Below, piece by piece: positions 2,266 to 24,000 of a DNA stretch of 24,000 nucleotides; the stretch's first letter is position 1; every line of letters starts with the position of its first letter. The DNA is from Terrimicrobiaceae bacterium. Lineage in GTDB: Bacteria; Verrucomicrobiota; Verrucomicrobiia; Chthoniobacterales; Terrimicrobiaceae. Made by a program: the position numbers and the translations under genes. The notes beneath the pieces are model-generated. The model worked only from the letters and a program-made list of their open reading frames with translations, was not told where the DNA came from and searched no databases. The stretch spans positions 1-24,000 of the forward strand of contig JBGSVZ010000127.1 in assembly GCA_041752695.1 (NCBI GenBank), written 5' to 3'.

Positions 2266-2354
2266 GACGAAAATTTCTCCAGAAAGGTGGTTCGGGTCCG
2301 GCATCCGGGCAAGCATTTTCTTGCCAGCGGGGCCGCCTTTCGCGAGAAAGCTGT

Positions 2355-4923: not shown

Positions 4924-4928
4924 TTTCG

Positions 4929-4955
4929 CGGGCGATTCGCCCGAATCTTTTTTTT
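4929..4955 (+). terminator. Rho-independent terminator after the PUR-like gene
   Basis: CGGGCG-ATT-CGCCCG hairpin (4929-4943) followed by AATC and a T8 run (4948-4955), 6 nt after the stop codon. Confidence 0.6.
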
Positions 4956-5026
4956 GCGGTCGCCGCAAAGCCCCGCGGGCTGCCTTTTTCGAAGGTCCTG
5001 CGCCCTCTCAGCCCCACTTTTCCTTT

Positions 5027-7783
5027 ATGTCCAAAAAAACCAAAACCTCTAAAAAGTCCCCGTCGCCTTCCGCCAAAGGCAAGTACGTATACACCTGGGG
5101 CGCAGGCAAAGCCGACGGCGACGGCAAGATGAAACCCCTTCTTGGCGGCAAAGGTGCGAACCTCGCTGAGATGACCCGCATCGGTCTCCCGGTCCCTCCC
5201 GGATTTACCATCACGACCGAGGTCTGCACGTATTTCTACGATCACAAAAAGACCTACCCACCTTCCCTCCAATCGCAGGTTGAAGCCGGCGTGCGCAACA
5301 TGGAGAAAATCATGGGTTACAAGTTCGGCGACGCCAAGGGCTTCCCGCTCCTCGTGGCCGTCCGCTCGGGTGCCCGCGACTCCATGCCCGGCATGATGGA
5401 CACGATCCTCAACCTGGGCCTCAACGACCAGACGGTTCTTTCCCTCGCCGCCGCGACGAAAAACGAACGTTTCGCGTGGGATTGTTACCGCCGCTTCATT
5501 CAGATGTATGGCGATGTCGTTCTCGGCGTGCAGAAGAAGGAGGGCGAAGACCACGAGCCCTTCGAAGTCGTGATCGAAGAGTTCAAACACGAGAAGTACC
5601 ACAAGGATATCGTGGACAGCGAACTCACCGCCGATGACCAGAAGGAAATGGTCGCGCGTTTCAAGAAGCTGGTCAAAGACCGCACGGGCAAAGGTTTCCC
5701 AAATGATCCCTGGGAGCAGCTCAAGGGCGCGGCCGGCGCTGTTTTCGGTTCGTGGATGAACGATCGCGCGATCGTGTACCGCCGCAAATACGGCATTCCC
5801 GCCGAATGGGGCACGGCTGTCAACGTGCAGGCCATGGTCTATGGCAACACGGGCGAAACCTCCGGCAGCGGCGTGGCTTTCACCCGCAATCCGGCCAACG
5901 GGGCCAATGAGTTTTACGGCGAATTCCTCATCAACGCGCAGGGCGAAGATGTCGTGGCCGGCGTCCGCACTCCCGAGCCCGTTTCGGAGCTGAAAAAACA
6001 AATGCCGAAATCCTACGCGGAGCTGATGAAGGTTCGCGCAATTCTGGAGAAACATTTCAAAGACGTGCAGGACGTCGAGTTCACGGTGCAGGAAGGCAAG
6101 CTGTTCATGCTGCAGACCCGCAACGGCAAACGCACCGCGGCCGCCGCGCTGAAGTTCTCCATGGACATGTTCAAGGAGAAGCTCATCGACTGGAAAACCG
6201 CCGTGATGCGCAATCCTGCCGATCAGCTCGACCAGCTCCTCGCCCCGATCTTCGATCTCGCCGAGATCAAGAAGGCCAAGGAACTCGCCAAGGGCCTCCC
6301 GGCCGGTCCAGGTGCCGCCTCAGGCAAGATCTACCTCAACGCCGACCGCGCCGCCGCCGCTGCCGAGAAGGGCGAAAAAGTCCTCCTCGTCCGGAATGAA
6401 ACCTCGCCGGAAGATCTTCGCGGTATGATCGCTGCCGAAGGCATCCTCACCGCCAAGGGTGGTGTCTCCTCCCACGCCGCGCTCGTCGCCCGTCAGATGG
6501 GCAAGGTTTGTATCTGCGGCGCCAGCTCGCTCCAGATCGACTACGACAAGAAGACCGTCACCGTCGCCGGACAGACCTTCAAGGAAGGAGATTTCCTCTC
6601 GATTGACGGCACCTCTGGCACCGTTTACGGCGGCCAGGTGGCCACCGCGCCGAGCGAAATCGTCGCCGGCCTGCTCAACGGCAACAAAGCCGCCCAGAAG
6701 ACCGAGAAGTTCAAAAACTTCCTCCAGCTCATGAAATGGTGCAGCCAGGCTTCCCGCATGGAAGTCCGGACCAACGCCGACACGCCCGAGCAGACGGAAA
6801 ATGCCCTGGCCTTCGGCGCGACCGGCATCGGCCTCACCCGCACGGAACACATGTTCTTCGAAGGCAACCGCATCGACGCCATGCGCGAGATGATTCTCGC
6901 CAACAACCTCGACGACCGCAAAAAAGCGCTCGCGAAACTCCTTCCGTTCCAACGTGAGGATTTCACCGGCATCTTCAAGGCGCTCAAGGGATTCCCGGCC
7001 ACGATCCGTTTCCTCGATCCTCCGCTCCATGAATTCCTTCCTCACACGAAGGAACAGCAGCTCGACCTCGCGAAGAAACTCGGCATCAAAGTCGAATTCA
7101 TCCAGCAGCGCGTCGAACAGCTTCACGAATTCAATCCGATGCTCGGACACCGCGGTTGCCGTCTCGGCGTCGCGTATCCCGAGATCACCGAAATGCAGGC
7201 CCGCGCCGTCTTCGAAGCCGCCGCTGACGTGGCGAAGAAGAAGATCAAGGTGAAGCCCGAAATCATGATCCCGCTCGTCGGATTCAAGAAGGAACTCGAC
7301 CTCCAGGTCGAAATCGTTCACCGCGTCGCCAAGGAAGTGATGGCCGAGAAGAAGGTCAAGTTCGACTACATGGTCGGCACCATGATCGAAGTGCCCCGCG
7401 GGGCCCTCACCGCTGACGAAATCGCGCAGACCGCGGAGTTCTTCAGCTTCGGCACGAACGATCTCACCCAGACGACGCTCGGCATCAGCCGCGACGACAT
7501 GGGCAATTTCCTCATGCCTTACACCGAGAACGAAATCTTCAAGAAGAACCCGTTCGCCACACTGGATCAGACCGGCGTCGGACAGCTCATGGAGATTGCC
7601 GTGGCCAAGGGCCGTGCGACCCGCAAGACCATCAAGCTCGGCATCTGTGGCGAACACGGCGGCGATCCAGACAGCGTGAAATTCTGTCACAAACTCGGCC
7701 TCGCCTACGTCTCGTGCTCGCCTTACCGCGTGCCCGTCGCCCGCCTCGCCGCCGCCCAGGCCGCGCTGGAAGAAGCGAAATAA
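5027..7783 (+). CDS. ppdK: Pyruvate, phosphate dikinase
   Basis: 918 aa. It has [15 protein letters not shown]-grasp N-terminal motifs, the phospho-His swivel domain [19 protein letters not shown], and a PEP-utilising C-terminal TIM barrel ([21 protein letters not shown]). A Lys/Ser-rich 17-aa N-terminal extension precedes the conserved KYVY start region. Confidence 0.95.
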
Positions 7784-10716: not shown

Positions 10717-11763
10717 TCAACGAACCGGCGCGTGGCAAAACCCTCCGCCATGTTTGGCGGCATATTGCTGATGGTATTCCTCAGCCCGGTAAAAGGGGCC
10801 CGCAAGTTCCACCTGGGTGACAATGGGGTTTCTGAAAGCGCCGTCTTTTTCCAGACGGGCAATTTTGACGCGGGTGGCGGCCTCTTGTTGCGGTGTGGTG
10901 AAAAACACTGCCGAGCGGTAGTTGTCGCCCACGTCAAACCCCTGACGGTTCAAGGTGGTGGGATTATGGATATCGAAGAGCCCGTCCAGCAACTGCGCGT
11001 AAGAGACGACAGCCGGATCGTAATCCACCTTCACCACTTCAGCATGGCCGGTCCTGTGGGAGCAAACCTGGTCGTAGGTCGGATCCTGTGTCGAGCCTCC
11101 CGCATAGCCGACCGCGGTCGCGGTGACGCCCTTCATCTTGCTGAAGGCTTCTTCCACGCCCCAGAAGCAACCTGCCCCGAAGATGGCTGTCTCTGTTTGG
11201 CGCGGAGCCTTATCCTGAAAACTCAGCGAGGCAGAGTTGATGCAGTAACGCAGACCGGTGGGTACGGGACCATCTGAAAAGACATGGCCAAGATGCGTGT
11301 CGCACCGGGCGCAATGGATCTCGTCGCGCGCCATGCCATAACTCACATCCCGGTCTGTCGCGACATTTTCCGCCGCGACCGGCTGGAAAAAGCTGGGCCA
11401 GCCGGTGCCGGATTCAAATTTCGCATCTGATCGGAAGAGCGGCAGCCCGCAGCCCACACAGGAATAGACCCCTTCCTTATGGTTGTCGTGAAACATTCCA
11501 CAGAATGCCCGCTCCGTCCCCTGGGCCCGGGCGACTTTGTATTGCTCCAGCGTGAGGCGGGCTTTCCATTCTTCGTCCGTCTTGATCACGCGGGGAACCA
11601 AAGCGGGTTCGTTGAGAGTGCCGTCCTCCCTGAGGAGGCGAACGGTGACATTTTCCGGTTTTGTTTTCATAGGGTTTGGTTTCGCGCCTGCCTGGACATT
11701 GAGCAGCGAGGCCGCGAAGAGTCCACCGGCAAGGGCGGCGAAGGAGATGACGAGAAATTTCAT
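10717..11763 (-). CDS. msrAB: Secreted bifunctional methionine sulfoxide reductase MsrB-MsrA
   Basis: 348 aa.
- N-terminal signal peptide: [26 protein letters not shown].
- MsrB (SelR) domain with two CxxC Zn motifs (CVGCG, CARCD) and catalytic RYCINS.
- MsrA domain with GCFWG and [12 protein letters not shown].
No thioredoxin domain is present. Confidence 0.9.
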
Positions 11764-11777
11764 AATATGGTATTCCG

Positions 11778-11807
11778 ATAAGTCGGAATCGGGTGGGAAT
11801 CCTTACG
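11778..11807 (-). promoter_or_regulatory. Regulon motif site A (upstream of msrBA): CGTAAGGAT-N11-TCCGAC-TTAT
   Basis: One of seven aligned sites with invariant GTAAGG and CGAC 15 nt apart. It ends 14 nt before ATG 11763. The downstream half lies within the perfect dyad ATTCCGA-CTTA-TCGGAAT (11772-11789). Confidence 0.5.
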
Positions 11808-11840: not shown

Positions 11841-11870
11841 TGTAAGGAAACCAGGCTTTGAACGACCAAT
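11841..11870 (+). promoter_or_regulatory. Regulon motif site B (upstream of the membrane-protein/Rieske operon): TGTAAGGAA-N11-AACGAC-CAAT
   Basis: Same motif and spacing, divergent from site A. ATG 11869 overlaps the motif. The next in-frame ATG, at 11878, lies 7 nt downstream. Confidence 0.55.
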
Positions 11871-12585
11871 GCGCGGGATGGGAGTAACTTTGGCCATTTC
11901 GTTTTGGACCGTCGCGGGGATCTACCTGGCGATCGGCTTGCTTTTTGCCGTGCCGTTCGTGATCCGGTGGGCCGGACGCCTCGACCCCGCGGCGGAGAAG
12001 GGAACCTGGGGTTTCCGGATGGCGATTCTTCCGGGGGTGGCGGCGCTGTGGCCGTTGCTTCTGCTGAAAATGCTGCGTTCCCGGCGCGATCAGCCGGCTC
12101 CTCCCGACACCGGGCAGGTCGCCACCGCTGCGGGTCTGCGGCGCATGCATGGAGTGGCCATTGTGCTGCTGGCGGTGATCGTTCCGGTGGTTTGCGTGGG
12201 CGCTTTGATGGGACGCCCCCGCGAACGGCACTCGACGGTCACCCAACTCCAGACGCGACCACTCCCGCAGGTGATTTCCCTTCCGACGGCGTGGCCGGAA
12301 GCGCTCCCCATCACGGCCTCGCTGCGGACCGATGGAACGCGCTCCCAGTTGCAAATGGATGTCACCCAGCCTCTGGAGGATCCCGTCGTCGCACTGTACT
12401 GGAGTCCGGGAAAGAACGAGTCGGGGGTGACGAAGGACGCCGTTTTTCTGGGGTCCCTCTGGGGACCTTCCACTCTTTTGTTCGAGCTTCCTGAGAAGGC
12501 CCGGACCCAACCCGGTTATCTGACTCTGCTCGCCCTCGCCGGTGAGCAGCGGGTCATCGGTTCCCTCCCTCTCCCGGCAAAATAG
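11869..12585 (+). CDS. Hypothetical membrane protein (3 predicted TM helices plus a C-terminal soluble domain)
   Basis: 238-aa ORF with hydrophobic helices (LAISFWTVAGIYLAIGLLFAVPF, MAILPGVAALWPLLLL, VAIVLLAVIVPVVCVGAL). The stop lies 2 nt before the next gene's start, which indicates an operon. The alternative start 11878 fits the promoter geometry better. No family was recognised. Confidence 0.55.
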   Translation: MRGMGVTLAISFWTVAGIYLAIGLLFAVPFVIRWAGRLDPAAEKGTWGFRMAILPGVAALWPLLLLKMLRSRRDQPAPPDTGQVATAAGLRRMHGVAIVLLAVIVPVVCVGALMGRPRERHSTVTQLQTRPLPQVISLPTAWPEALPITASLRTDGTRSQLQMDVTQPLEDPVVALYWSPGKNESGVTKDAVFLGSLWGPSTLLFELPEKARTQPGYLTLLALAGEQRVIGSLPLPAK

Positions 12586-14399: not shown

Positions 14400-14429
14400 A
14401 AGAAGCGTCCTTTCCAGGAAAAGGAAAAA

Positions 14430-14464
14430 CCGCCGCCCTCTTTCAGAGGCGGCGGCTCTTTTTT
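14430..14464. terminator. Bidirectional Rho-independent terminator between convergent genes
   Basis: CCGCCGCCCTCT-TTC-AGAGGCGGCGG hairpin with one bulged C, followed by CTCTTTTTT. It is preceded by GAAAAGGAAAAA, which gives a T-rich tract on the other strand. Confidence 0.7.
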
Positions 14465-14479
14465 GAGAACCCTACGACC

Positions 14480-14695
14480 TTACCGGGTCTTGGAATTGCC
14501 CGAACCCACGAGCTTCTCGAACTTCATCTGGATCGAGTTGTCTTTCATGACCTTCGTCTTGACCTGATACTGCGCGCCGCAGGAGGTGCAACGGAAGGCA
14601 GGGGCAACGACGACGGTTTCTTCCGCCATGGCGGAGGTTCCGAGGAATCCCAGCGCCAAGGTGGCGAGGGCCAGTGTTTTTGTTAGTGTTTTCAT
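14480..14695 (-). CDS. Small secreted protein with a CxxC motif (71 aa)
   Basis: Internal ATG at 14695 of ORF 14480-14845; the longer form would overlap the NRDE gene. It has a signal peptide MKTLTKTLALATLALGFLGTSAMA followed by EETVVVAPAFRCTSCGAQYQVKTKVMKDN... It has its own motif site C and a downstream terminator. Confidence 0.6.
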   Translation of the reverse strand: MKTLTKTLALATLALGFLGTSAMAEETVVVAPAFRCTSCGAQYQVKTKVMKDNSIQMKFEKLVGSGNSKTR

Positions 14696-14737
14696 AGTTA
14701 TTAATTTTTGTTTCAACGCATGATTGTGCGCTTGCAG

Positions 14738-14767
14738 ATGAGTCGGGGTCGGGCTTGAAACCTTACA
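14738..14767 (-). promoter_or_regulatory. Regulon motif site C (upstream of the small CxxC protein): TGTAAGGTT-N11-CCCGAC-TCAT
   Basis: Same invariant GTAAGG-N15-CGAC. The TAA within TGTAAGG is the stop codon of the NRDE gene (14763-14765). The leader to ATG 14695 is 42 nt, the only long leader in the set. Confidence 0.45.
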
Positions 14768-15503
14768 GTGCGCTGGAAGAGAACCCGGCGGACAGACGGA
14801 GGGACATGGTGAATGGGGGCCCGCTGCAACAAGGTGGTCCGGCATGATAGGCCATCACCGCCCCGGTGGAGTTCAGGGAGATCTCCGTGCAACTGACGGT
14901 GCAGGCATCGGCGCGGTGCATGCAGAGGGAAAACGCACCGTTGGTGGGAACATGCGAACGATGCAGCCGGCGCAGCCAGGGAAGCGTGTCAGCGTCGGCT
15001 TCTCCGGCGGCATCGCCGCAGGTCAGGCGGCGCACGTGATTGGCTTGCTCCTCATCGAAACCGGAGGAAAACCAGTGGCATTTTTCCCAGGGCAGAGCGG
15101 AGCCTTCCAACAGGCTTCCACTCGATCTCCATTCCTGGAGACGTTTTTCGCTTGGCGAAACGATGATCAGCCGAAAGGGGTTCATGCGCGAAAGTGGCAG
15201 TGCCTTGAGCCGGACTTCCGCCTCCCCGGCGGTTTCTTCGGCGAGCAGAGCGGGAATGACCTCGCCGCGACTGAGTGTGCCGGCGAGTTGGGGCTGGGAA
15301 TACCAGTTGATGAGGGCCAGAGTGAGGCCCGACTCATTAATGCCAGCCCATGTGCCGCCATGGAGTTCGTGGGGATAGAGTGCGGCCAATCCGCCGCACC
15401 GATGAATCGAAGGCGGCAAGGCCGCCGGGCGCGAAAGGAGCTCGTCGCGATTCATTAGCAGATCAAATCCGCCGGAATGAGGGAGGAAGGAAACCGAGCA
15501 CAT
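14763..15503 (-). CDS. NRDE family protein (DUF833 / TANGO2-like, N-terminal Cys)
   Basis: 246 aa. It begins MCSVSF and contains the family-defining LMNRDE motif at residues 16-21. The start lies 3 nt after the upstream gene's stop. Confidence 0.75.
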   Translation of the reverse strand: MCSVSFLPHSGGFDLLMNRDELLSRPAALPPSIHRCGGLAALYPHELHGGTWAGINESGLTLALINWYSQPQLAGTLSRGEVIPALLAEETAGEAEVRLKALPLSRMNPFRLIIVSPSEKRLQEWRSSGSLLEGSALPWEKCHWFSSGFDEEQANHVRRLTCGDAAGEADADTLPWLRRLHRSHVPTNGAFSLCMHRADACTVSCTEISLNSTGAVMAYHAGPPCCSGPPFTMSLRLSAGFSSSAL

Positions 15504-15506
15504 GAA

Positions 15507-17105
15507 TCAGTCGGCCAGGGGATGACAAAGGCTGCGCGATTGATATCGCCTCCATTCGGAAAAGATCGTCCTCAAGGTATCCGCCCGATGACCAAGGCGG
15601 CGGTTCTCACTGGCAATGGCAAAGACAAGTTCCCATTGCTCGAAGAGGAGGCGATAGGCTTCCCTCAGCGATTTCGAGGCATCATAGGCGCTGGTGGCTT
15701 CCGAGGCTGCGCCATTGAGTTCGAGGATGGTGAAGCCCCGGCCGCACTGAAATTCCTCCAGCGATGCAAACCTCACGTCATAACGACCAATGAAAAAGCC
15801 GGGGACTTTCTGCGAAATCTCATCGATACGGGCCTCGAGTTGTTCGCTCCAAAGATGCATGCCGTCGCGAAAAATACAGCCTTGGGCGTGGTTGCCGGCC
15901 TCGACCAGCCGGAGGCTTTGGCCGAAGGGAAGAACCACATCGCACCGGTCCCGGAACCGGCGCAGATAGACGTCCGCCATCATGGCCGCCCGGGCATCAG
16001 CGCGGATGAGTTCCTCCACGCTCCGATGACCGTCGCCAAAGACCACCGGAAAAATTTTCTCGGTGATGGCAAAAATGCGGCCGCAGGGCTCGTGCGGAAA
16101 CCGGTAGTAGAACACTCCCGTTTCGTGCGGGCCGGGAACGTATTTTTGGGCAACGATCGGGACATTCACCGCCGCGAGATAGTTGCAGACATCACTCTCC
16201 GTTCGGGCAACCTTGAACCCGCTACCCCGCTGGGCCACATCAGGCTTGAGCACAAAGGGGAATTCCAGTTCCCCACGTTGCAGAAGATCCTCGATCGGTG
16301 CCATGCAGCCTCCCTCGATCAGGAAACTCGGCGCGACCCAATCCGGGCTGGATCGCTGAAGGTCTTGCAGCGTGGCGTATTTCGATTCGCCGATGAGCCC
16401 GCCGGTGAACATGCCGGGATTGGCGCAGGTGGGGAGATTAAATCCGCGATACTTGACCGACAGCCGCAGGTACTGGAACGCAACGGGAAGGTAGAACAAC
16501 CACGCTGGCCAGAACTCCCATTGCAGCCAGCGCTGCACCCACGGAGCACGATGAAGGGCCCCGGTGATTTTTCCGCGGAAGGGGATCAGGACGGACAGAA
16601 CAAGAATGAGCAGACCAACCCACGCCCCGTGGCGGTGGAGGGCATGAAAAAGTTCCGGTGCGGCTTTTCCCAGTTGGCCGACGAGCCAGAAGCCTCCCGC
16701 CACCCAGAGTGCGGCCAGGAGACCGGTGATACCGGCAAAAAACAGCACCGGCATCCGCAGCAGCCCCGCGGTGAGGTAGGTCGGCAGACGGGTGCCGGGA
16801 ATGACCCGGCAAATTACCAGGGAAAGGAGTCCATGGCGGCTAAACCAGGCTTCGCTTTGCGCAAGCTTTTCCATGGTGCGGTCGTTCTTCCCCCAAAGCC
16901 GGTTGACCAACGGCCGGCCAAATTGCCGGGCAATGAAATAGAGCCCGACATCCCCCGCCCAGATACCAAGGAAACAGGCGACGAAGGCGGGCCTCGCGGC
17001 CATCATGTTCATCGAAGCGAGAAACCCGCCGCTCAAAACCGCCGCGTCCTCGGAGAGAAACGTGAAAAAGAAGAGTCCGGCAAAATACCAGGCGTCCGGT
17101 TCCAT
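15507..17105 (-). CDS. Membrane fusion protein: DedA/VTT (SNARE-associated) domain plus C-terminal ATP-grasp ligase domain
   Basis: 532 aa.
- The N-terminus has FLSEDAAVLSGG and GIWAGDVGLYFIARQFGRPLV...CRVIPGTRLPTYLTAG, the DedA/PF09335 pattern, plus further TM helices.
- The C-terminal 300 aa or so have ATP-grasp features: FPFVLKPDVAQRGSGFKV, IVAQKYVPG, FPVVFGDGHRSVEELI, and FTILELNGAASEATSAYD. Confidence 0.7.
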   Translation of the reverse strand: MEPDAWYFAGLFFFTFLSEDAAVLSGGFLASMNMMAARPAFVACFLGIWAGDVGLYFIARQFGRPLVNRLWGKNDRTMEKLAQSEAWFSRHGLLSLVICRVIPGTRLPTYLTAGLLRMPVLFFAGITGLLAALWVAGGFWLVGQLGKAAPELFHALHRHGAWVGLLILVLSVLIPFRGKITGALHRAPWVQRWLQWEFWPAWLFYLPVAFQYLRLSVKYRGFNLPTCANPGMFTGGLIGESKYATLQDLQRSSPDWVAPSFLIEGGCMAPIEDLLQRGELEFPFVLKPDVAQRGSGFKVARTESDVCNYLAAVNVPIVAQKYVPGPHETGVFYYRFPHEPCGRIFAITEKIFPVVFGDGHRSVEELIRADARAAMMADVYLRRFRDRCDVVLPFGQSLRLVEAGNHAQGCIFRDGMHLWSEQLEARIDEISQKVPGFFIGRYDVRFASLEEFQCGRGFTILELNGAASEATSAYDASKSLREAYRLLFEQWELVFAIASENRRLGHRADTLRTIFSEWRRYQSRSLCHPLAD

Positions 17106-17111
17106 GACGCC

Positions 17112-17642
17112 TCAGGCCGCCAGGCGGGCCGTTTTTTGAAGGTGTTGGATCGTCGAAGGCGCGACCCCGAATCCCTCCGGCAGCGCCACCTCCAACAAGC
17201 CGCCCATCACGCCGATGAGAGCGTAGTGATGGATGGCATGGACGGTGCAAAACATCAGCTCGCGGCCCACGGTCGAGGCCGCCATGGGAGAGTCAACCGC
17301 AGAATAGGAAACCTGGCTCCGGGCCCACACAAAACGATCCAGCCCGGCTTCCGGCATCTCGCCGGCTTTGCGGCGAAGTTCCCGGGTTTTGGCCAGCGCC
17401 ACCTCCCGTTCGGTCTCGATGCGCGGATCGCGCTTGCGGGCATCGTAATCGGCCACCTCGTCCTCAAGGCCATCGAAAACACAGCAAAAATGATCCAGAC
17501 AGTGCCGGTAGTGACCCCCAATGGAGGCATGGAACGCGGCCGGGACCTTGATCATGTAGGCCGCATCATCGAGAGCCACCAAAAGCGTTTCGCCCTGTCC
17601 GAGGATCTCCCGCACTGCGTTGAGAATGATGGACGAATTCAT
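17112..17642 (-). CDS. DinB-family (DinB_2-like) four-helix-bundle metalloprotein
   Basis: The start was taken at ATG 17642, which forms an ATGA overlap with the DoxX stop (MNSSIILNAV...). The His triad signature is IGGHYRHCLDHF and VHAIHHYALI. The gene ends 6 nt before the next start. Confidence 0.65.
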   Translation of the reverse strand: MNSSIILNAVREILGQGETLLVALDDAAYMIKVPAAFHASIGGHYRHCLDHFCCVFDGLEDEVADYDARKRDPRIETEREVALAKTRELRRKAGEMPEAGLDRFVWARSQVSYSAVDSPMAASTVGRELMFCTVHAIHHYALIGVMGGLLEVALPEGFGVAPSTIQHLQKTARLAA

Positions 17643-18046
17643 TTCGCGATCAGATTCCCGACTAGGGGAATCGTGCGGCGGTAGATCAAAAGAAGAACGG
17701 CGCAGCACACGGCAACCACCAACGCCAGTCCGAAGAGCAAACCGTGATCGCCCTGCACCTCGATGCCAAGCACGGTCAGGTGACTCATGATGGCGCCTCC
17801 GATCACGCCCAGCGCGAGGCCCGCCCCGAGCCAGGTCAGACCCGGCCAGAACAGCAGAATGGCGGCAATCAATTCAACCACCCCTGATCCGATGCGACCC
17901 CAGGGTTCGAGACCGACTTTGGTGAAGATATACACGGACTCCGGAGCGGAGGTGAATTTGAAGAACAAGGTCTGCAGCAGGATGACGGCCGCGACGATCC
18001 GGCAGATCCAGGCCAGGACCACTTCGGTTTTGTTGAGTTCATGCAT
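17639..18046 (-). CDS. DoxX family membrane protein
   Basis: 135 aa with four TM helices. RIVAAVILLQTLFFKF, GSGVVELIAAILLF and GGAIMSHL fit the DoxX pattern. Confidence 0.75.
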   Translation of the reverse strand: MHELNKTEVVLAWICRIVAAVILLQTLFFKFTSAPESVYIFTKVGLEPWGRIGSGVVELIAAILLFWPGLTWLGAGLALGVIGGAIMSHLTVLGIEVQGDHGLLFGLALVVAVCCAVLLLIYRRTIPLVGNLIAK

Positions 18047-18055
18047 AGGTTTCCG

Positions 18056-18085
18056 ATTCGTCGGACGTCCCAGGCATTCCTTACA
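18056..18085 (-). promoter_or_regulatory. Regulon motif site D (upstream of the DoxX operon): TGTAAGGAA-N11-TCCGAC-GAAT
   Basis: Same motif. It ends 9 nt before ATG 18046. The downstream half forms the dyad TCCGA-CGAA-TCGGA (18052-18065). Confidence 0.6.
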
Positions 18086-18103: not shown

Positions 18104-18844
18104 CTATTTCTCCAGCCAGCCGCCGACAGCCTGTAGGGGAGCCAGGCTTTGTGGGGAGTGCACCCACACGGCCAGGGCGGAAAGGGGAGCGGCTGCTTTC
18201 TCGGGAAGCACAAGTTGCGCGGTGTATTTGCCGGCAGCAGAGGCAACCATTTCCGACTGCACGAAACCCAGCGCCAGGAAATTGTGCTGCAAAATTTTTC
18301 CCGCATTCTCACCACGCCGGACTTCGGTGCCCACGCCCTGCCCCAAGGGGACGAGCGCAACCGTCAGCGGGCCGTTGACTCTTCCAGCCGGGATGAAGGA
18401 GACATCGACCGTCCCGTCATCGCTCACAGTGACGCGGAGCCGCCCGGCTTTTTCCTTCGAGGGGGCTGGCAGTGCACCGCTCCTCCGCCATTCCGCGCCG
18501 TTGAGCACGAATTCCGGCGTGTAGATGGTGGACGCGTTCCATTCCTCACCGTAGGCCCGTTGGCGCTGGGTGAATTCCGCGGAGGCGAACCGGTCGGGCC
18601 AGCCGAGCGAATCCCAGTAGTCCACATGAAACGCAACGGGAACAAACTCCTTCCACAGGCCAGATTGGTCCTTGAGACCGCCCAGCCACGCTTCCGCTGG
18701 CGGGCAACTGCTGCACCCCTCCGAAGTGAAGAGCTCCAGAAGGGCAACCCGCTCCTCCGGACTCTCCAGAACGGCCGCGCTGCGGGCCTTTCCGACGCAC
18801 ACGGTCAGGACGGCGAGGGCGAGGAGGGAAAATGCAGGGTGCAT
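18104..18844 (-). CDS. DUF1223 domain protein (secreted, thioredoxin-like CxxC)
   Basis: 246 aa with a signal peptide. LELFTSEGCSSCPPAEAWL, FHVDYWDSLGWPDRF, FTQRQRAY and IYTPEFVLNG match the DUF1223 family signature. Confidence 0.85.
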   Translation of the reverse strand: MHPAFSLLALAVLTVCVGKARSAAVLESPEERVALLELFTSEGCSSCPPAEAWLGGLKDQSGLWKEFVPVAFHVDYWDSLGWPDRFASAEFTQRQRAYGEEWNASTIYTPEFVLNGAEWRRSGALPAPSKEKAGRLRVTVSDDGTVDVSFIPAGRVNGPLTVALVPLGQGVGTEVRRGENAGKILQHNFLALGFVQSEMVASAAGKYTAQLVLPEKAAAPLSALAVWVHSPQSLAPLQAVGGWLEK

Positions 18845-18853
18845 TTTTTTTCG

Positions 18854-19300
18854 TTATTTCCCCTTTTTCTCCACGAGGGAGGGCCAGTTCGTGTCAGCCT
18901 TCTTGAGGTTTCCGGCACTATCCTTGCTGAAGTCTTTCCTTACTCCGAGGCTGTATTGCAAAAGCAGGCGGCCATCAACGATCTGGAACGCGTTCGGGTC
19001 AATCGAAGCGGAGTAGCCCTGGGACACGGCCCAGGCGCAGAAGCCACCGAATTGGGGTTCGTATTTCGCGGGATTCGCATCGAAGGCGGCCTTGTGCTCG
19101 GCCGTCGCGAAATAATAGATCACCCCGTTGGCGCTGCTCTGAAATTTGGGGTCGCCTTTCACGGCCTTGTTGTCGGTGAAATACGCGACCGGGTCGTAAC
19201 CCTTGATTCCCACTCCGCTTCGGTCGGTATTGACGAGGTCCTTGCCCAGGGCAAAGGGAGCAAGAGCGATGAGCACTGCAATGATGAGATAATTTTTCAT
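18854..19300 (-). CDS. YHS domain-containing secreted protein
   Basis: 148 aa with a signal peptide. GYDPVAYF, YYFATAEHKAAFDANPAKYEPQFGGFCAWAV and DGRLLLQYS match YHS-type proteins. It lies 9 nt upstream of the DUF1223 gene. Confidence 0.85.
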   Translation of the reverse strand: MKNYLIIAVLIALAPFALGKDLVNTDRSGVGIKGYDPVAYFTDNKAVKGDPKFQSSANGVIYYFATAEHKAAFDANPAKYEPQFGGFCAWAVSQGYSASIDPNAFQIVDGRLLLQYSLGVRKDFSKDSAGNLKKADTNWPSLVEKKGK

Positions 19301-19305
19301 TTCCC

Positions 19306-19335
19306 ATTGGTCGGACAGCCAACGGTTTCCTTACA
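19306..19335 (-). promoter_or_regulatory. Regulon motif site E (upstream of YHS-DUF1223): TGTAAGGAA-N11-TCCGAC-CAAT
   Basis: Same motif. It ends 5 nt before ATG 19300. Confidence 0.6.
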
Positions 19336-19347
19336 AACCGCTGCAAT

Positions 19348-19668
19348 TCAGTGGCCCTCGTTCCGTAAGGCCTGCTTGAGCCGCTCTTGCGCGGCGGGTG
19401 AAAGGCCCCCGCCTTGCTCCAGGTGTTTTGGTAATTGGCTGATGGCCTTACCCAGAAAATCGATCTGCCGAAGGTAGCGGGCGCAGAACTTGCAAAACAT
19501 CCGGTGGAGGTGAAGCCGGAATCGCAATACGGGAGGAAGCTTTCGGTCGCGTCCCTCAGAAGTCAGCCTCACCACCTCATGGCAATCGGGCGTGATCAAC
19601 CAGATCAGATCGGCCAAGGCGCTTCTGATTCCACGGGGTTCATGATGCGTGTCGGGAGGATGAGGCAT
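19348..19668 (-). CDS. Zinc-binding anti-sigma factor (ZAS, zf-HC2 type), soluble and RsrA-like in size
   Basis: 106 aa. The spacing C29-x25-H55-x3-C59-x2-C62 (PDCHEV ... HRMFCKFC) is the ZAS signature. There is no TM segment. It lies directly downstream of the ECF sigma gene. Confidence 0.75.
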   Translation of the reverse strand: MPHPPDTHHEPRGIRSALADLIWLITPDCHEVVRLTSEGRDRKLPPVLRFRLHLHRMFCKFCARYLRQIDFLGKAISQLPKHLEQGGGLSPAAQERLKQALRNEGH

Positions 19669-19675
19669 CGCACTA

Positions 19676-19705
19676 TTTCGTCGCGTTCAGGCGCAATTCC
19701 TTACA
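19676..19705 (-). promoter_or_regulatory. Regulon motif site F (upstream of the anti-sigma gene): TGTAAGGAA-N11-CGCGAC-GAAA
   Basis: Same motif. It ends 7 nt before ATG 19668, in the 122-nt gap between the sigma and anti-sigma genes. Confidence 0.55.
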
Positions 19706-19790: not shown

Positions 19791-20412
19791 TCACAGCTGG
19801 CGTCCGCCCTCTCCCCCAAAGTAGCCCAACTCCAGGCAAAGCCGCAACGCCAGGCGGGCCCGGTGCAGCATGACCCAGAGGTTCGATTCGCTGACGTTGA
19901 GAGTGGCGCAGATCTCCTTGCTCGGAACATCATCCATCTCACGCATCATAAAAACCTGCGCGGTTGGCCCGGGGATCTTCTGCAGGCACAGTTGCAGAGC
20001 CTGCCAGAATTCGTTCCGTTTGAGCGCCTCCTCACCTTCGGGGCTTCCAATCGGTGGGTCCGCGCTCGTGGATCCAATAATCCTCGCCGTCGAAACGGTC
20101 GGAGTGTTCGTCCTTGAAAAATTCCAGATCGGTGAAACTCGTTTCGCGTCCGAGTTTGCGGAAGTGGTCACAGATCTTGTTTTTGAGGATTCCCACCAGC
20201 CAGCTCCGCACACCCGACCGGCCCGCAAAACGTTCCTGCGAGCGCACCGCTGCCAGGAGAGTGTCTTGCACAAGATCTTCCGCCAGAGTCCCGTTACGCA
20301 CCCGAATGAGGGCATAGCGGTAAAGGCAGTCACCGTGTTCGTCCACCCATTTTTCGGGATCCGCATCTGCCGGACTCGAGCCGGGCTGCTTGAGATGATT
20401 GGAAATTTCCAC
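19791..20412 (-). pseudogene. ECF-type RNA polymerase sigma-70 family factor, interrupted by a single-nucleotide frameshift (or a sequencing error)
   Basis: Region 2 (DLVQDTLLAAVRSQERFAGRSGVRSWLVGILKNKICDHFRK) is in ORF 20032-20412, which has a GTG start. Region 4 (FWQALQLCLQKIPGPTAQVFMMREMDDVPSKEICATLNVSESNLWVMLHRARLALRLCLE) is in the +1-shifted frame of ORF 19791-20525. The frames meet at the coding-strand sequence AAG CCC CGA AGG TGA, where the + strand reads GGGG at 20041-20044. Deleting one C gives a continuous ...DWKPEGEEALKRNEFW... protein of about 206 aa. Confidence 0.75.
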
Positions 20413-20468: not shown

Positions 20469-20498
20469 TGTAAGGAATCGCCTGACCTCCCGACCAAA
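20469..20498 (+). promoter_or_regulatory. Regulon motif site G (upstream of the olsB-like gene): TGTAAGGAA-N11-CCCGAC-CAAA
   Basis: Same motif on the + strand. It ends 6 nt before ATG 20505, in the divergent region shared with the sigma gene. Confidence 0.6.
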
Positions 20499-20504: not shown

Positions 20505-21275
20505 ATGATCGCGCTCCGCCCGCACCTTCTCTCCGGACTATTTTCCCGGCGGCACTACCAGGTGCGCTTCGCCAAAACGCGCGATGAGGTTGAGGCGGCG
20601 TTGCGGTTGCGATTTGCCGTCTTCAATCTCGAACTTCACGAAGGATTGGTTTCCTCCTACGCCAGCGGGCTCGACGAAGACGAATTCGACGCCGTCTGCG
20701 ATCACCTCGTCGTTTGTGAAGAACCCAGCGGCGAGGTGGTTGGCACCTACCGCCTGCAAACCGGGGCCATGGCGGCACAGAATCTCGGCTACTATAGCGC
20801 CCGTGAATTTGATTTCTCGCCCTTCGAACCGGTGCGGCATTCTCTCGCGGAACTCGGCCGGGCCTGTGTCCACAAAGACCACCGAAACCTGACCGTCATC
20901 AGTCTGCTCTGGAGGGAGATCGTCCGCTACGCTGTCGCCCGAAAAGCGCGCTACCTGATTGGGTGCAGCTCGCTGACCTCGCAAGATCCAGCGTTTGGTC
21001 TAGCGATGTACCGGCGACTGGCGGAAAAACATCTGGCGGACCTCACTTTTCAGACCAGACCGCTCCCGGAGTTCGCCATGACCGGCAGCCCGGCGCTCGG
21101 GGATTGTCCGCCTCCGCCCAAATTGCTCCGGGCTTACCTCAATGTAGGCGCGAAAATCTGCGGCCCACCCGCGCTGGACCGGGAATTCCAGACGATAGAT
21201 TTTCTCACCCTGCTCGACTGTGACAACGGGTCGCCCGTTGCGATCAAACATTTCCTCACCCTTCACAACTCGTGA
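20505..21275 (+). CDS. olsB: GNAT-family N-acyltransferase, OlsB-like (acyl-ACP:amino acid N-acyltransferase of aminolipid synthesis)
   Basis: 256 aa. ALRLRFAVFNLEL, DEDEFDAVCDHLVV, VVGTYRLQ, YYSAREFDF, ELGRACVHKDHRN and YLIGCSSL follow the OlsB / hemolysin-like Acetyltransf_5 pattern. It has a GTGA overlap with the downstream acyltransferase. Confidence 0.75.
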   Translation: MIALRPHLLSGLFSRRHYQVRFAKTRDEVEAALRLRFAVFNLELHEGLVSSYASGLDEDEFDAVCDHLVVCEEPSGEVVGTYRLQTGAMAAQNLGYYSAREFDFSPFEPVRHSLAELGRACVHKDHRNLTVISLLWREIVRYAVARKARYLIGCSSLTSQDPAFGLAMYRRLAEKHLADLTFQTRPLPEFAMTGSPALGDCPPPPKLLRAYLNVGAKICGPPALDREFQTIDFLTLLDCDNGSPVAIKHFLTLHNS

Positions 21276-22024
21276 GTGCCGGGCAATTTCTGTGTGCGCT
21301 CTTGCGCGTCGGCGGTCTCGGAGCCGTGATCGTGGCTGGCATTTTTCGCTACCAAAAAGCAAGGCGCACGTCGGACGACCTGCCAGGGAAACTGGCCTGG
21401 ATGCAGGGGATGAGCCGGGGTTTTCTGCGCGTCCTGGACTGCGACGTTCATCGCACGGGGAACATTCCCCGGCAGGGCCTCATTGTCAGCAACCATCTCA
21501 GCTATGTGGACATCCTCGTGATCGGATCCGTCTGCCCCGCGGTCTTTGTGGCCAAGAGCGAGGTGCGCCGTTGGCCAGTCTTTGGCTGGTTGAGCGAAAT
21601 GGCCGGGGCCATTTTTGTCGAACGCCACCGGAGTCGCAATGTGCGCGTTCAACTGGCGGAAATCATCCGTCCGCTCGAGGCGGGATTGCCCGTGGTTCTT
21701 TTTCCTGAAGGCACGAGTTCGGACGGTTCCCGGGTTTTGCCCTTCCACAGTTCCCTGCTCGAAGCGGCACGTGAGGCGCAACAGACAGTGACCCCCTGCG
21801 CCATCTCGTATGGGTGGCTGGACGGTGGGAGCGAGTGCCACGACGTGTGTTATTGGGGCGACATGGTTTTCGCCGTGCATCTCTTCAAACTGCTCTCCAA
21901 AAAAAAATCCCTACGGGCGGGAGTGTCTTTCGGACAGCCCCGCGCGCTCGTCACCGACCGGAAGCGCGAGGCTGTTCGTTTTCAGAAGGAAGTCGCCGGA
22001 CTGCTTAATAACTGTGCACCGTGA
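21272..22024 (+). CDS. olsA: Lysophospholipid/lyso-aminolipid O-acyltransferase, PlsC family (OlsA-like)
   Basis: 250 aa with a GTG start. It has an N-terminal TM helix, the HX4D motif in VSNHLSYVDILV, and the FPEGTSSDG motif. It is paired with the olsB-like gene. Confidence 0.75.
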   Translation: MSAGQFLCALLRVGGLGAVIVAGIFRYQKARRTSDDLPGKLAWMQGMSRGFLRVLDCDVHRTGNIPRQGLIVSNHLSYVDILVIGSVCPAVFVAKSEVRRWPVFGWLSEMAGAIFVERHRSRNVRVQLAEIIRPLEAGLPVVLFPEGTSSDGSRVLPFHSSLLEAAREAQQTVTPCAISYGWLDGGSECHDVCYWGDMVFAVHLFKLLSKKKSLRAGVSFGQPRALVTDRKREAVRFQKEVAGLLNNCAP

Positions 22025-23024
22025 CGCGCGTCTTACCGCGGAAGATCCAGTAGATGCAAGCCGTATAAGCGAGAACGAGTGGAACGCCGATGGCCGCGAT
22101 GATCAGCATGTTGCCGAGGGTTTTCTGGCTGGAGGCGGCATTGTAAATCGTGAGGCTGTTTTCGGGATTCGGGTTTGAGAACACCATGTAGGGGAAATAG
22201 CTAAGACCAAAGGTGGCCATGAGAAGGGCCATGCCGGCACAGGAGGACAGGAAGGCGTTAAAGACGCGGCCTTTGTGGATCTCGCGGGGAATGTTCATCA
22301 CGATCAGCACGTCGAGGAGCATGACGCCAAGAATCCACGGGCGGTCGCGGGCAACCTGCAGGACACGATCCACATAAACGAGCGTGATCATGTTAAAAAG
22401 CACGTAGCAGGTGATGAAAAGGCCGATCAGTCCCGGCACCCAGCCGCGGACAATTTCGAGGATTTCGCCGTCGTTTTTCATCACGAGGTAGATGCAGCCG
22501 TGCATGGCAAAGAGGACGACGGTGGTGACGCCGAGGAAAAGCGCATAGGGATTGAGCAGACCGAGGAAGGTGCCGTCAAACTCATGGTCGGCATCGAGTG
22601 GGACGCCCCAGACGAGGTTACCCATGGCCACGCCAATCAGGAACGAGGAAAGGACGCTCCCCACACAAAAGGCGATGTCCCACATCGTTCGCCACCAGCC
22701 CCAGGGTTCCTTGCTGCGAAATTCGATCGCGACCGCCCGGAAAATCAGCGAACAGAGCAGCAGCATGAAGGCCAGGTAAAATCCGGAGAAGACGGTGGCG
22801 TAGGCCTCGGGAAAGGCCGCGAAGAGTGCCCCGCCGCCCGTGACCAGCCAGACTTCGTTGCCGTCCCAGACGGGTCCGATGGAATTGAGAAAGAGGCGGC
22901 GGTGTTCGTCTTTTTTGACAAAAAGGTGAAGCGCACCCACCCCGAGATCGAAGCCGTCCAGGATGGCGTAGCCGGTGAGGAGCACGCCGACGAGGACGAA
23001 CCAGATGATGTTGAGATCGATCAT
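22005..23024 (-). CDS. cydB: Cytochrome bd ubiquinol oxidase subunit II
   Basis: The start was taken at ATG 23024, which forms an ATGA overlap with the cydA stop. MIDLNIIWFVLVGVLLTGYAILDGFDLGVG is a typical CydB N-terminus, and the protein is polytopic. Its 3' end overlaps the convergent olsA-like gene by 20 nt. Confidence 0.9.
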   Translation of the reverse strand: MIDLNIIWFVLVGVLLTGYAILDGFDLGVGALHLFVKKDEHRRLFLNSIGPVWDGNEVWLVTGGGALFAAFPEAYATVFSGFYLAFMLLLCSLIFRAVAIEFRSKEPWGWWRTMWDIAFCVGSVLSSFLIGVAMGNLVWGVPLDADHEFDGTFLGLLNPYALFLGVTTVVLFAMHGCIYLVMKNDGEILEIVRGWVPGLIGLFITCYVLFNMITLVYVDRVLQVARDRPWILGVMLLDVLIVMNIPREIHKGRVFNAFLSSCAGMALLMATFGLSYFPYMVFSNPNPENSLTIYNAASSQKTLGNMLIIAAIGVPLVLAYTACIYWIFRGKTRVTVHSY

Positions 23025-24000
23025 GCCCGGGCCTCCCTCGCGCGGCGAACCACGTTTTTCCAACTCTCCGGCATTTCCTCACTTTCGTCCGCGCAATCGG
23101 GACCATGCTGAATCTTCCGGGTGAGCAGGAAGAGGAACGCCGCGAAGAGGAGAACATAGACAAAACCAAACATGACCAGCGAGGCGACAATCTGGTTGGC
23201 GGTGACGACCTTGGAGATGGCCTCGGAGGTTTTCAGCATCTCATAAACGATCCACGGTTGGCGGCCCATCTCCGCAGCGAACCATCCGGCCTGATTGGCA
23301 ATCTGCGGACCCAACACGCTGAAAACCAGCACCCAGAGAAAGGCGCGGGTGAGAGGGAGATCGGCCCGAAAAAGCGTGCCGCGAATCCAGAGCAGGCCGG
23401 CCACGATGACGATGGCCAGCATGATGCCCCCGAGGATGATCATGAGGTGAAAAAACTGGAACACCGCAGGGACGTTGGGCCAGTAGCTCTTCCGGATTTC
23501 GGCGAGTTCCGGGGCGGGAGCCTCCGGGTAGCGTTTTTGGAGGAACGCGTCGGTTGGAAGTTGATCGAGACCCTGGACGGGTTTAGCGGGATCGGCCCAG
23601 GCCAGAAAGCTGAGCAGGCCCGGGATCTTGATTCCGAAAGTCCGCCGGGTTTTCGGGTCCACCCAGCCGACGGCGGTGAGCGGGGCAAAGGCGGTGGTCT
23701 CGTAGAGTCCCTCCATGGCGGCGAGTTTGACCGGTTGGTTTTTCACCACGCCCTTGGCCGAGATATCGCCGCTGATCATCTGCAGGACAGTCGCCACCAT
23801 CCCGAAGGCCAGGCCGACTTTCAGAGACGCCTTGGCAAAGTCATAGTGACGGCCGCGCAGCAGGTAAAAGGCACTGATGCTGACGACGAGGAAGGCCCCC
23901 GCCATCCAGGCCCCGAGCACGACATGCGTGAGGCGCTCGATGCTCGAGGGGTTCAGCACCATGGCCCAGAAATCATCCACCACCGCGCGCACGCTGCCAA
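23021..24000 (-). CDS. cydA: Cytochrome bd ubiquinol oxidase subunit I (partial; N-terminus beyond the window)
   Basis: The reading frame is open to the window edge. It contains a Q-loop-like periplasmic region and the conserved GWFAAEMGRQPWIVY motif. Confidence 0.9.
   Translation of the reverse strand, partial: GSVRAVVDDFWAMVLNPSSIERLTHVVLGAWMAGAFLVVSISAFYLLRGRHYDFAKASLKVGLAFGMVATVLQMISGDISAKGVVKNQPVKLAAMEGLYETTAFAPLTAVGWVDPKTRRTFGIKIPGLLSFLAWADPAKPVQGLDQLPTDAFLQKRYPEAPAPELAEIRKSYWPNVPAVFQFFHLMIILGGIMLAIVIVAGLLWIRGTLFRADLPLTRAFLWVLVFSVLGPQIANQAGWFAAEMGRQPWIVYEMLKTSEAISKVVTANQIVASLVMFGFVYVLLFAAFLFLLTRKIQHGPDCADESEEMPESWKNVVRRAREARA

Follow-up and report, generated by a model that had tools for sequence, protein, structure and literature searches.

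In the 24,000-nucleotide stretch of contig JBGSVZ010000127.1 from a Terrimicrobiaceae bacterium (hereafter the window), four adjacent minus-strand genes, which encode a DoxX-like membrane protein, a DinB-like protein, a fusion of a VTT/DedA membrane domain with an ATP-grasp domain, and a protein of the NRDE/TANGO2 family, form one tightly coupled unit behind a promoter motif of the extracytoplasmic function (ECF) sigma type. The DinB-like protein, the ligase and the NRDE protein constitute a conserved functional module across at least five phyla, and this module is physically linked to synthases of the OlsB/OlsA or OlsF type, in the window also through a common motif. It is proposed that the operon encodes a ligase/amidase pair which, induced by stress, remodels the head group of a membrane lipid built on an N-acyl amino acid (ornithine-lipid type), a reading to which a probability of roughly 0.4 is assigned. 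An earlier note on this DNA had delineated the four genes and suggested that they make, attach or recycle a small amide-linked molecule at the membrane during oxidative stress.

The open reading frame (ORF) listing gives four minus-strand frames of 135, 176, 532 and 246 aa between positions 18046 and 14763 (Table 1). The junctions were read directly in the sequence, and each is as the earlier note had given it, one ATGA overlap followed by gaps of 6 and 3 nt. The ATGA at 17639-17642 combines the DoxX stop codon TGA (17641-17639) with the start codon ATG of the DinB-like gene (17642-17640). The stop codon of the latter (17114-17112) is followed by the 6-nt gap (17111-17106) and the ATG of the fusion gene at 17105, while the fusion stop codon (15509-15507) is followed by the 3-nt gap (15506-15504) and the ATG of the NRDE gene at 15503. 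The ORF listing starts the DinB-like gene further upstream, at a GTG (17708); this start was dropped in favour of ATG 17642, because the orthologs have a matching length (172-180 aa, 176-aa forms included) and begin with MN..IL. No noteworthy terminator-like hairpin was found inside the four genes, and a sigma-70-type promoter scan of the operon region found no promoter. Beyond the NRDE gene, ahead of the terminator that closes the transcription unit, lies the small secreted CxxC protein that had been described as separately promoted. It has its own degenerate copy of the motif, its N-terminus resembles a signal peptide, and a CTSC motif is present in its sequence. Among the loci sampled, its homologs occur only in L001 (two copies, 4866-5395, each preceded by its own exact copy of the motif) and L003 (8792-9016); as a member of the regulon it is specific to this lineage.

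The fusion protein is the centre of the system. Its N-terminal part matches Pfam PF09335 over residues 24-135 with 51.8 bits against a cut-off of 33.9, and the same family is carried by 120 of 120 homologs among the matches listed. Full-length orthologs of 530-565 aa are found in several phyla. Membership of the VTT part in UptA was rejected, the NCBIfam scores being 38.7 and 34.1 bits against equivalog cut-offs of 250 and 300. In the AlphaFold model (33 homologs; predicted local distance difference test score, pLDDT, 84), DedA-type helices are followed by helices at residues 160-186 and 201-218 and then by an alpha/beta domain. Within the linking region, W196, E197, F198, W199, P200, F204, Y205 and P207 are invariant in the narrower alignment and nearly invariant in the wide one, and this Trp-rich WEFWPxWxFYxP segment is kept even in forms of 350-390 aa that have no VTT domain.

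The C-terminal domain is a predicted ATP-grasp ligase of an unannotated and unmodelled family. Pfam ATP-grasp models gave no match to the fusion, and the NCBIfam models for Ddl_archaea, CPS-like proteins and cyanophycin synthetase reached 15-17 bits against cut-offs of 218-850. Foldseek placed the modelled domain closest to cyanophycin synthetase (E 2.4e-9), with GshAB, Ddl and CPS within the range 2.4e-9 to 4e-7; there were 448 matches in the PDB at E<=1e-3, the top 50 of which are all ATP-grasp enzymes, PurK included. A profile search against the PDB agrees weakly (cyanophycin synthase, E 1e-3). Furthermore, K287, Q320, E328, R441, D443, E462 and N464 are invariant across 50 diverse sequences at 34-54% identity. 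The resulting order of Lys, Arg-x-Asp and Glu-x-Asn corresponds to the ATP-binding Lys and Mg-binding residues of Ddl, which we take to be the pattern of an active ATP-grasp ligase. Fold and invariant residues are therefore those of an ATP-grasp enzyme although the curated hidden Markov models (HMMs) stay below their cut-offs, and the fusion of such a ligase to a DedA/VTT domain with extra helices, as claimed from the bare sequence, is borne out by the Pfam match, the model helices and Foldseek together. Public annotation of the protein reads only 'VTT domain-containing' or 'DedA'. It should be noted that, where ATP-grasp enzymes typically have an N-terminal substrate domain, the fusion has the nearly invariant WEFWPxW helix and a short segment, which suggests a substrate facing the membrane.

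The NRDE protein matches Pfam PF05742 with 40.6 bits against a cut-off of 22.6, a match that covers residues 15-147 only, and it matches the crystal chains 8sv7 and 9bwa of human TANGO2 at E 2.4e-4. The Met-Cys start that had been pointed out in it is a family feature: among 109 orthologs, at the positions covered, Cys2 is present in 104 of 104 (after a start M or V) and the NRDE motif in 106 of 106. Such invariance argues for catalysis rather than heme carriage. The closest structural relatives of TANGO2 are the acyl-amide hydrolases NAAA, acid ceramidase, bile-salt hydrolase and isopenicillin-N acyltransferase (IAT) (PMC13044924). The same 2026 crystal study describes a Cys N-terminal-nucleophile (Ntn) hydrolase architecture with non-specific heme binding, amidohydrolase activity being not established for any family member (PMC13044924). 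Here, the NRDE protein is proposed as an amide hydrolase, like its Cys-Ntn relatives, which cleave acyl-amide lipids and bile-salt conjugates.

The window copy of the DinB-like protein scores 21.2 bits against the Pfam DinB_2 cut-off of 24.8. Its orthologs match DinB_2 in 28 of 31 cases (best 5e-8) and DinB in 20 of 31. The AlphaFold2 (AF2) model (pLDDT 93.7; predicted template-modelling score 0.88) was compared with the PDB by Foldseek, and the top 26 matches are all DinB/YfiT-like four-helix bundles, among them 3gor, 3dka, 1rxq, 8f5v (MST) and 5wk0 (BstA); TM scores on the query are 0.36-0.62, or 0.49-0.62 for the top 17. H44, R46, H47, R69, R71, R127, E128, H135, H138 and H139 are invariant. 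According to the alignment, H44/H47 and H135-x3-H139 sit where the DinB family has its candidate metal-binding His triad. A close sequence tie to the thiol S-transferases BstA and MST was not found, identity being 14-15% and the Foldseek E value 0.1-0.2. For the DoxX-like protein, the window copy reaches only 21.4 bits (E 2.7e-4) against the DoxX_2 cut-off of 26.3, and its orthologs at E<=0.01 match DoxX_2 in 23 of 23 cases (best 5e-8), DoxX in 12 and MauE in 11. The identities first given to these two proteins are thus upheld, the DinB fold in the one by model and orthologs and the DoxX-like character of the other by its orthologs.

Two samples of related loci were compiled, the 80 best of at least 587 matches in species-representative genomes and the 80 best of at least 471 in metagenome contigs; the latter, a second and more distant sample, was searched with a ligase domain of the type fused to an alpha/beta hydrolase (ABH). 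Neighbours were counted with HMMs built from the window proteins in loci with flanks of 3 kb or more on either side (53 genome and 26 metagenome loci). All related loci come from metagenome-assembled genomes (MAGs) or metagenomes, and the counts are not phylogenetically independent. The genome sample comprises Verrucomicrobiota, Acidobacteriota, Planctomycetota, Hydrogenedentota, Alphaproteobacteria (Rhizomicrobium), Nitrospirota and Eisenbacteria. Near the fusion, the DinB-like gene is present in 51 of the 53 genome loci, NRDE in 48, DoxX in 37 (about 70%) and YHS in 27, and the metagenome sample has the DinB-like gene in 21 of 26 loci and NRDE in 17. Because of these counts in both samples, the DinB-like protein, the ligase and NRDE are regarded as the core and DoxX and YHS as frequent accessories, whereas DUF1223 and the small secreted protein were added locally. 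The co-conservation of fusion, NRDE and DinB expected by the earlier note is therefore present in both samples; of its set of four, the three core genes stand, DoxX is reduced to an accessory, and the unit extends beyond the part of the window then covered to YHS and olsBA. Two gene orders are observed, DinB-FUSION-NRDE and DinB-NRDE-FUSION, and in some loci VTT and the ATP-grasp domain (GRASP) are split into separate genes. Moreover, a search with the ATP-grasp domain yielded 977 clusters at E<1e-30 among 1.84 billion representatives. Of the best 150 representatives, 116 are VTT + GRASP and about 30 carry an N-terminal alpha/beta hydrolase (ABH + VTT + GRASP); two of the best 150 (P0169 and P0178) unite TANGO2 + ABH + VTT + GRASP in a single chain. 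As a separate observation, the contigs L021 and L061, labelled as 'uncultured Bifidobacteriaceae' MAGs, carry an operon and motif of the Verrucomicrobia type and are probably mis-binned.

ORF clustering of the loci revealed an N-acyltransferase family of the GNAT type (Acetyltransf_5/FeeM) in 23 loci and a PlsC-type acyltransferase in 13, whose best NCBIfam matches are OlsB and OlsA, or OlsF for fused forms of 557-657 aa, all below the equivalog cut-offs (371 bits against 620 for the OlsF-like protein of L116, for example). In the window, the olsB/olsA-like pair lies 2.4 kb upstream of the operon, divergent from it and behind an exact copy of the motif. Ols-type genes are located no more than 5 kb from the ligase in 19 of 53 genome loci and 8 of 26 metagenome loci, in at least five phyla and in varied arrangements; the chance expectation within 5 kb is about 0.2% for a gene present once per genome. 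They are found within the operon in L027 (DoxX-OlsB-OlsA-DinB-FUS-NRDE), L013, L030, L160 and L162, immediately 3' of it in L068 and L070, immediately before it in L143 and L154, convergent downstream in many loci, and with the ligase alone in L081.

As the earlier note had stated, all four genes lie behind a motif, site D, the pattern of which is TGTAAGGAAT-N12-CCGAC, to be read as a -35 element GTAAG, N16 and a -10 element CGAC. The form GTAAGGA-N14-CGAC occurs six times in the window against an expectation of 0 (none in 100 shuffles). With up to two mismatches allowed, there are seven sites against 0.38 expected, each immediately upstream of a gene. Among 82 related genome loci, 27 have the motif upstream of DoxX or DinB, and several also have it ahead of genes following NRDE, olsB included. 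The geometry of the motif is ECF-like, and an ECF sigma gene and a gene for a 106-aa HxxxCxxC anti-sigma factor are adjacent. From the common motif and the neighbouring sigma/anti-sigma pair, the sites of the window probably make up the regulon of an ECF sigma factor. The earlier designation of site D as a stress promoter accords with a motif that is common to msrBA and adjoins the small HxxxCxxC anti-sigma gene; the results suggest that msrB-msrA is a methionine-sulfoxide repair arm of the same regulon. Ahead of six of seven start codons, the motif ends 2-18 nt upstream; mis-called starts, or a motif with a function other than that of a promoter, are alternatives for this short spacing. The residues of a sigma ortholog align to the window in two frames, residues 11-133 in frame -2 (20406-20047) and residues 139-210 in frame -3 (20024-19809). 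Deletion of one C from the CCCC at 20040-20043 restores the reading ...PTDWKPEGEEALKRNEFW..., and possible explanations of the split are a sequencing error in the homopolymer, a pseudogene and a genuine frameshift.

In the proposed mechanism, oxidative or envelope stress would be the trigger. The cytoplasmic ATP-grasp domain, anchored through the VTT domain and the Trp-rich juxtamembrane helix to the membrane, would activate a carboxylate as acyl-phosphate and join an amine to it, the simplest target being the free alpha-carboxylate of the amino acid in the lipid made by OlsBA. Presentation of the lipid, or its transfer across the bilayer, would fall to the VTT/DedA domain. The NRDE protein would hydrolyse the same or a neighbouring amide, either removing the added group or cleaving the N-acyl amide, and the two enzymes would thereby act as a writer/eraser pair. 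By analogy with E. coli glutathionylspermidine synthetase/amidase (Gss), the Cys nucleophile could make this eraser sensitive to oxidants, which could be switched off in this way under stress and let the product accumulate. The DinB-like metalloprotein would contribute an accessory step that is obligatory, and DoxX and the periplasmic YHS and DUF1223 proteins may be optional redox partners. Support for this lipid model comes from the operon anatomy, the folds, the TANGO2 + ABH + VTT + GRASP fusions, the invariant predicted catalytic residues, the synteny, the Ols linkage, the stress-related genes that carry the motif, the Trp-rich helix and the acyl-amide hydrolases among the relatives of TANGO2. 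Among the products that the earlier note had considered, the lipid gains support from the linkage to OlsB, OlsA and OlsF, and the envelope-bound peptide loses support. It is also tentatively suggested, with more doubt than confidence, that bacterial TANGO2/NRDE proteins are the amidase partners of VTT-tethered ATP-grasp ligases, the two jointly acting on N-acyl-amino-acid lipids and possibly building a lipid-anchored, redox-active head group.

Several points weigh against the remodelling of a lipid head group. The functional assignments of all module members rest on inference, and the ligase is placed in the cytoplasm by an assumed topology. The near-obligatory DinB-like protein is given no explained role, and characterised DinB-fold enzymes are mostly thiol transferases, a better fit to a thiol pathway. 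Since the scores lie under the equivalog cut-offs, the Ols proteins of the window and of the other loci are only homologs of aminolipid synthases, with their amino-acid specificity open. In two thirds of the loci, Ols genes are absent from the 5 kb around the fusion, and the link could therefore mean a shared stress regulon and not a shared substrate. The short distance between motif and start codons implies, if the motif is read as a promoter, leaderless mRNAs or mRNAs with very short leaders, and the sigma gene of this window is frameshifted. Finally, remote branches of the ligase family lie outside the samples of the 80 best loci.

The strongest competitor, which is nevertheless unlikely, is a pathway of a low-molecular-weight thiol, in which the GshB-like ligase would build or rebuild a Cys amide, the DinB-like protein would be an S-transferase, NRDE an S-conjugate amidase in the role of Mca/Bca or EgtC, DedA the exporter of the product, and DoxX the link from thiol oxidation to quinones. 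The DinB fold resembles that of the bacillithiol and mycothiol S-transferases BstA and MST and of YfiT, the DinB-like gene is nearly always present, and glutathione synthetase GshAB is among the closest ATP-grasp structures. Moreover, an RsrA-like HxxxCxxC anti-sigma gene together with msrBA in the regulon is a signature of thiol-oxidative stress, and E. coli Gss is a precedent for the combination of a Cys-nucleophile amidase with an ATP-grasp synthetase. However, the resemblance of the DinB-like protein to thiol transferases is one of fold only (11-17% identity), no Cys-supplying genes or genes for a sugar/polyol scaffold recur in the neighbourhood, and both the covalent membrane tether with its Trp-rich helix (retained in the VTT-less forms) and the repeated insertion of OlsB/OlsA/OlsF in or beside the operon are left without a reason. 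A hybrid of the two schemes is rather improbable. Here, an N-acyl amino acid lipid made by OlsB/OlsA would receive Cys or a Cys-containing amine on its carboxylate through the ligase, VTT would flip the product, and this membrane-anchored redox buffer would be handled by the DinB-like protein, DoxX and the periplasmic CxxC and YHS proteins. It is the sole model with a role for every recurrent component (Ols, ligase, DinB-like, NRDE, DoxX, YHS and DUF1223), and it fits the common oxidative-stress motif. It is, however, purely inferential; YHS, DUF1223 and DoxX are dispensable in many loci, and no such lipid appeared among the keyword hits in a review of aminolipids (PMC11631085).

Less credible still is action on a polyprenyl-phosphate-linked envelope precursor, for example the peptide stem of lipid II, with the DedA/UptA-like domain handling undecaprenyl phosphate and a Ddl-like ligase adding an amino acid. 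The VTT part does find its best NCBIfam matches in the UptA undecaprenyl-phosphate transporters (E 1e-9), the ligase is similar to Ddl and cyanophycin synthetase, and a GT4 glycosyltransferase gene lies upstream in L002. Yet the better UptA score falls far short of its cut-off of 250 bits, genes of the mur, fts, pbp or polysaccharide type do not recur in its neighbourhood, and the Ols linkage indicates another class of lipid. A role in heme handling, with NRDE as a heme-trafficking protein of the TANGO2/HtpA type that serves the nearby Ferric_reduct-Rieske protein and cytochrome bd and with the other genes unrelated to it, is very improbable. A bacterial TANGO2 homolog has been reported in heme trafficking (PMC10470608), and heme-protein genes are nearby; against this stand the non-specific heme binding and Cys-Ntn architecture noted above (PMC13044924), the invariant Cys2 and NRDE motif, which argue for catalysis, and the fusion of the NRDE domain to ABH, VTT and ATP-grasp as well as the tight synteny with the ligase, which have no heme logic. 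The modification of the downstream small secreted CxxC peptide by the ligase, in the manner of a ribosomally synthesized and post-translationally modified peptide, is near refuted: ATP-grasp enzymes do modify ribosomal peptides, and the small gene lies 3' of the operon and has an NCBIfam 'ocin' match, but this match is a weak one, at 19 bits where the cut-off is 40, the Sec-type signal peptide means that the peptide exits the cytoplasm, and the gene, confined to the closest relatives L001 and L003, is not co-conserved with a module that spans phyla.

The remaining genes of the window are compiled in Table 1 together with the operon. About 17-20 loci have the pair of the 238-aa gene and the Ferric_reduct-Rieske gene close to the operon, often together with a gene for a short-chain dehydrogenase/reductase. 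The YHS family is labelled '(seleno)protein' by NCBI, and the window copy has Cys in GGFCAW; the DUF1223 protein carries CSSC, and both proteins have signal peptides. No copy of the motif for the cytochrome bd genes was seen within the window.

Table 1. Features of the operon and of the rest of the window, with their positions.
Feature	Position	Strand	Remarks
DoxX-like 4-transmembrane-helix protein, 135 aa	17639-18046	-	accessory member
DinB/YfiT-fold putative metalloprotein, 176 aa	17112-17642	-	core member
VTT/DedA + 2 helices + ATP-grasp fusion, 532 aa	15507-17105	-	core member
VTT/DedA domain, fusion residues 24-135	16701-17036	-	Pfam PF09335
Two extra helices, fusion residues ~160-218	16452-16628	-	include the Trp-rich WEFWPxWxFYxP; precede the ligase domain
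Predicted ATP-grasp amide-ligase domain, fusion residues 216-532 (317 residues)	15510-16460	-	not covered by Pfam
NRDE/TANGO2-family putative Cys Ntn amidohydrolase, 246 aa	14763-15503	-	core member
ECF-type promoter motif, site D	18060-18085	-	TGTAAGGAATGCCTGGGACGTCCGAC; in the 57-bp gap upstream of DoxX
Degenerate motif copy, 2 mismatches	14742-14767	-	overlaps the NRDE stop codon; upstream of the small secreted gene
Small secreted protein, 71 aa	14480-14695	-	signal peptide, CTSC; lineage-specific add-on outside the conserved module
Intrinsic terminator	14425-14460	-	14-bp stem + T-run, strong; closes the transcription unit; terminator scan
Motif copy	11782-11807		ahead of msrB-msrA (minus)
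Motif copy	11841-11866		ahead of the 238-aa gene of unknown type, then the Ferric_reduct + Rieske gene (plus)
Motif copy	19310-19335		ahead of the YHS gene
Motif copy	19680-19705		ahead of the anti-sigma gene
Motif copy, exact	20469-20494	+	ahead of the olsB/olsA-like pair
OlsB-like N-acyltransferase	20505-21275	+	Pfam Acetyltransf_5 1.4e-30; OlsB 127 bits vs 350
OlsA-like O-acyltransferase	21272-22024	+	Pfam Acyltransferase 3.3e-26; OlsA 148 bits vs 300
DUF1223 periplasmic CxxC protein	18104-18844	-	Pfam E 1.7e-45; upstream of the operon; in 9/60 loci
YHS-domain (seleno)protein-family periplasmic protein	18854-19300	-	NCBIfam NF041384 144.6 bits vs 70
Small RsrA-like anti-sigma factor, 106 aa, HxxxCxxC	19348-19668	-	NCBIfam anti-sigma E 9e-13
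ECF sigma factor gene	19791-20412	-	frameshift-split at the C-run 20040-20043
MsrB-MsrA fusion	10717-11763	-	~69 extra N-terminal residues; divergent from the 238-aa/Ferric_reduct pair
Unknown 238-aa protein	11869-12585	+	no Pfam or NCBIfam match
Ferric_reduct (MsrQ-like) + Rieske + undefined C-terminal part, 603 aa	12588-14399	+	translationally adjacent to the 238-aa gene
Cytochrome bd oxidase subunits II and I	22005-23992	-	convergent with olsA; cydB end overlaps olsA end by ~20 nt
Weak phage-integrase-like ORF	337-1605	-	left window end; unrelated to the operon
Prepilin-type N-terminal methylation-motif protein	1735-2316	-	left window end; unrelated to the operon

The operon bears on two protein families that have been difficult to place. 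The function of TANGO2 is disputed, a heme carrier, an acyl-CoA binder and an Ntn hydrolase having been suggested, and the substrates of DedA/VTT proteins are largely undefined. By coupling a TANGO2 homolog with aminolipid synthases, a VTT domain and an amide ligase that depends on ATP, the conserved operon, in some organisms a single polypeptide, limits the chemistry to that of amide bonds located at the membrane. If the proposal is true, it would give the first biochemical context for the TANGO2 family, the human member of which underlies a disorder with metabolic crises and lacks an agreed function, and it would tie TANGO2 functionally to VTT/DedA, a fold found in the eukaryotic scramblases VMP1 and TMEM41B. 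Furthermore, an ATP-grasp family of about 1,000 clusters (E<1e-30) has been hidden under the label 'VTT domain-containing protein', and, if the lipid link holds, a new stress-induced modification of aminolipid head groups would be present in soil and freshwater phyla. The operon is thus a testable bacterial handle on TANGO2 and DedA/VTT proteins, open to lipidomics and enzymology.

Among known systems, MprF with its operon-encoded hydrolase (of the AcvB/VirJ or PA0919 type) is the one that the model works like: likewise a cytoplasmic head-group enzyme is fused to a lipid-translocating domain, accompanied by a hydrolase that undoes the modification, and responsive to stress. MprF differs, however, in its synthase, which is GNAT-like (DUF2156) and uses aminoacyl-tRNA, with no ATP and no ATP-grasp domain; its flippase is not DedA/VTT, its hydrolases are of the alpha/beta or another serine type and not TANGO2, and there is no DinB-like partner. 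No sequence relationship of the operon to MprF was found in this analysis. E. coli Gss joins an ATP-grasp amide synthetase and a Cys-nucleophile amidase for the same bond in one protein, an arrangement that the TANGO2 + ABH + VTT + ATP-grasp fusions echo, and oxidation of its amidase Cys lets the product accumulate under oxidative stress. In contrast to the system described here, Gss is soluble, its amidase is a CHAP domain and not of the Ntn/TANGO2 fold, and its substrates are glutathione and spermidine; it was absent among the listed matches of the profile and fold searches with the fusion. The closest solved structures, namely the ATP-grasp (G) domain of cyanophycin synthetase, GshAB and D-Ala-D-Ala ligase, have the same fold and the same Lys ... 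Arg-x-Asp ... Glu-x-Asn pattern, but they are only 9-18% identical, and the fusion has a membrane helix and VTT in place of their N-terminal substrate domain.

With the ornithine-lipid pathway (OlsB/OlsA, OlsF) the connection is one of genomic linkage, and the operon would be a further modifier of aminolipid head groups. The known modifiers of ornithine lipids, the hydroxylases OlsC, OlsD and OlsE and the methylase OlsG, are not ATP-grasp, DedA, DinB or TANGO2 proteins. Amide-extended aminolipids are known chemically, ornithine-taurine lipids being an example, and to our knowledge no gene has been assigned to them. Mycothiol and bacillithiol detoxification (MST/BstA with Mca/Bca) likewise combines a DinB-fold protein and an amidase in an oxidative-stress regulon, whereas Mca and Bca belong to a metal-dependent deacetylase family and not to the Ntn hydrolases, and the ligases MshC and BshC are neither ATP-grasp enzymes nor membrane-tethered. 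Eukaryotic TANGO2 and bacterial HtpA share the family PF05742, the N-terminal Cys and the NRDE motif with the window protein; human TANGO2 is distant from it, as its E value indicates, and neither TANGO2 nor HtpA is known to have been reported with a ligase, DedA or DinB partner. The passages found in the paper on bacterial TANGO2 (PMC10470608) make no mention of such neighbours, and full-text literature searches found no paper on the fusion, the operon or an association of TANGO2 with DedA and ATP-grasp, nor any curated family, in keeping with the claim of the earlier note that no system with this architecture had been described. The operon belongs only to the ATP-grasp, VTT/DedA, TANGO2 and DinB superfamilies and is a member of none of the MprF, Gss, cyanophycin synthetase, GshAB or Ddl families. 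What these comparisons point to is a membrane head-group system resembling a ligase/hydrolase pair, which would be assembled from an unprecedented set of parts.

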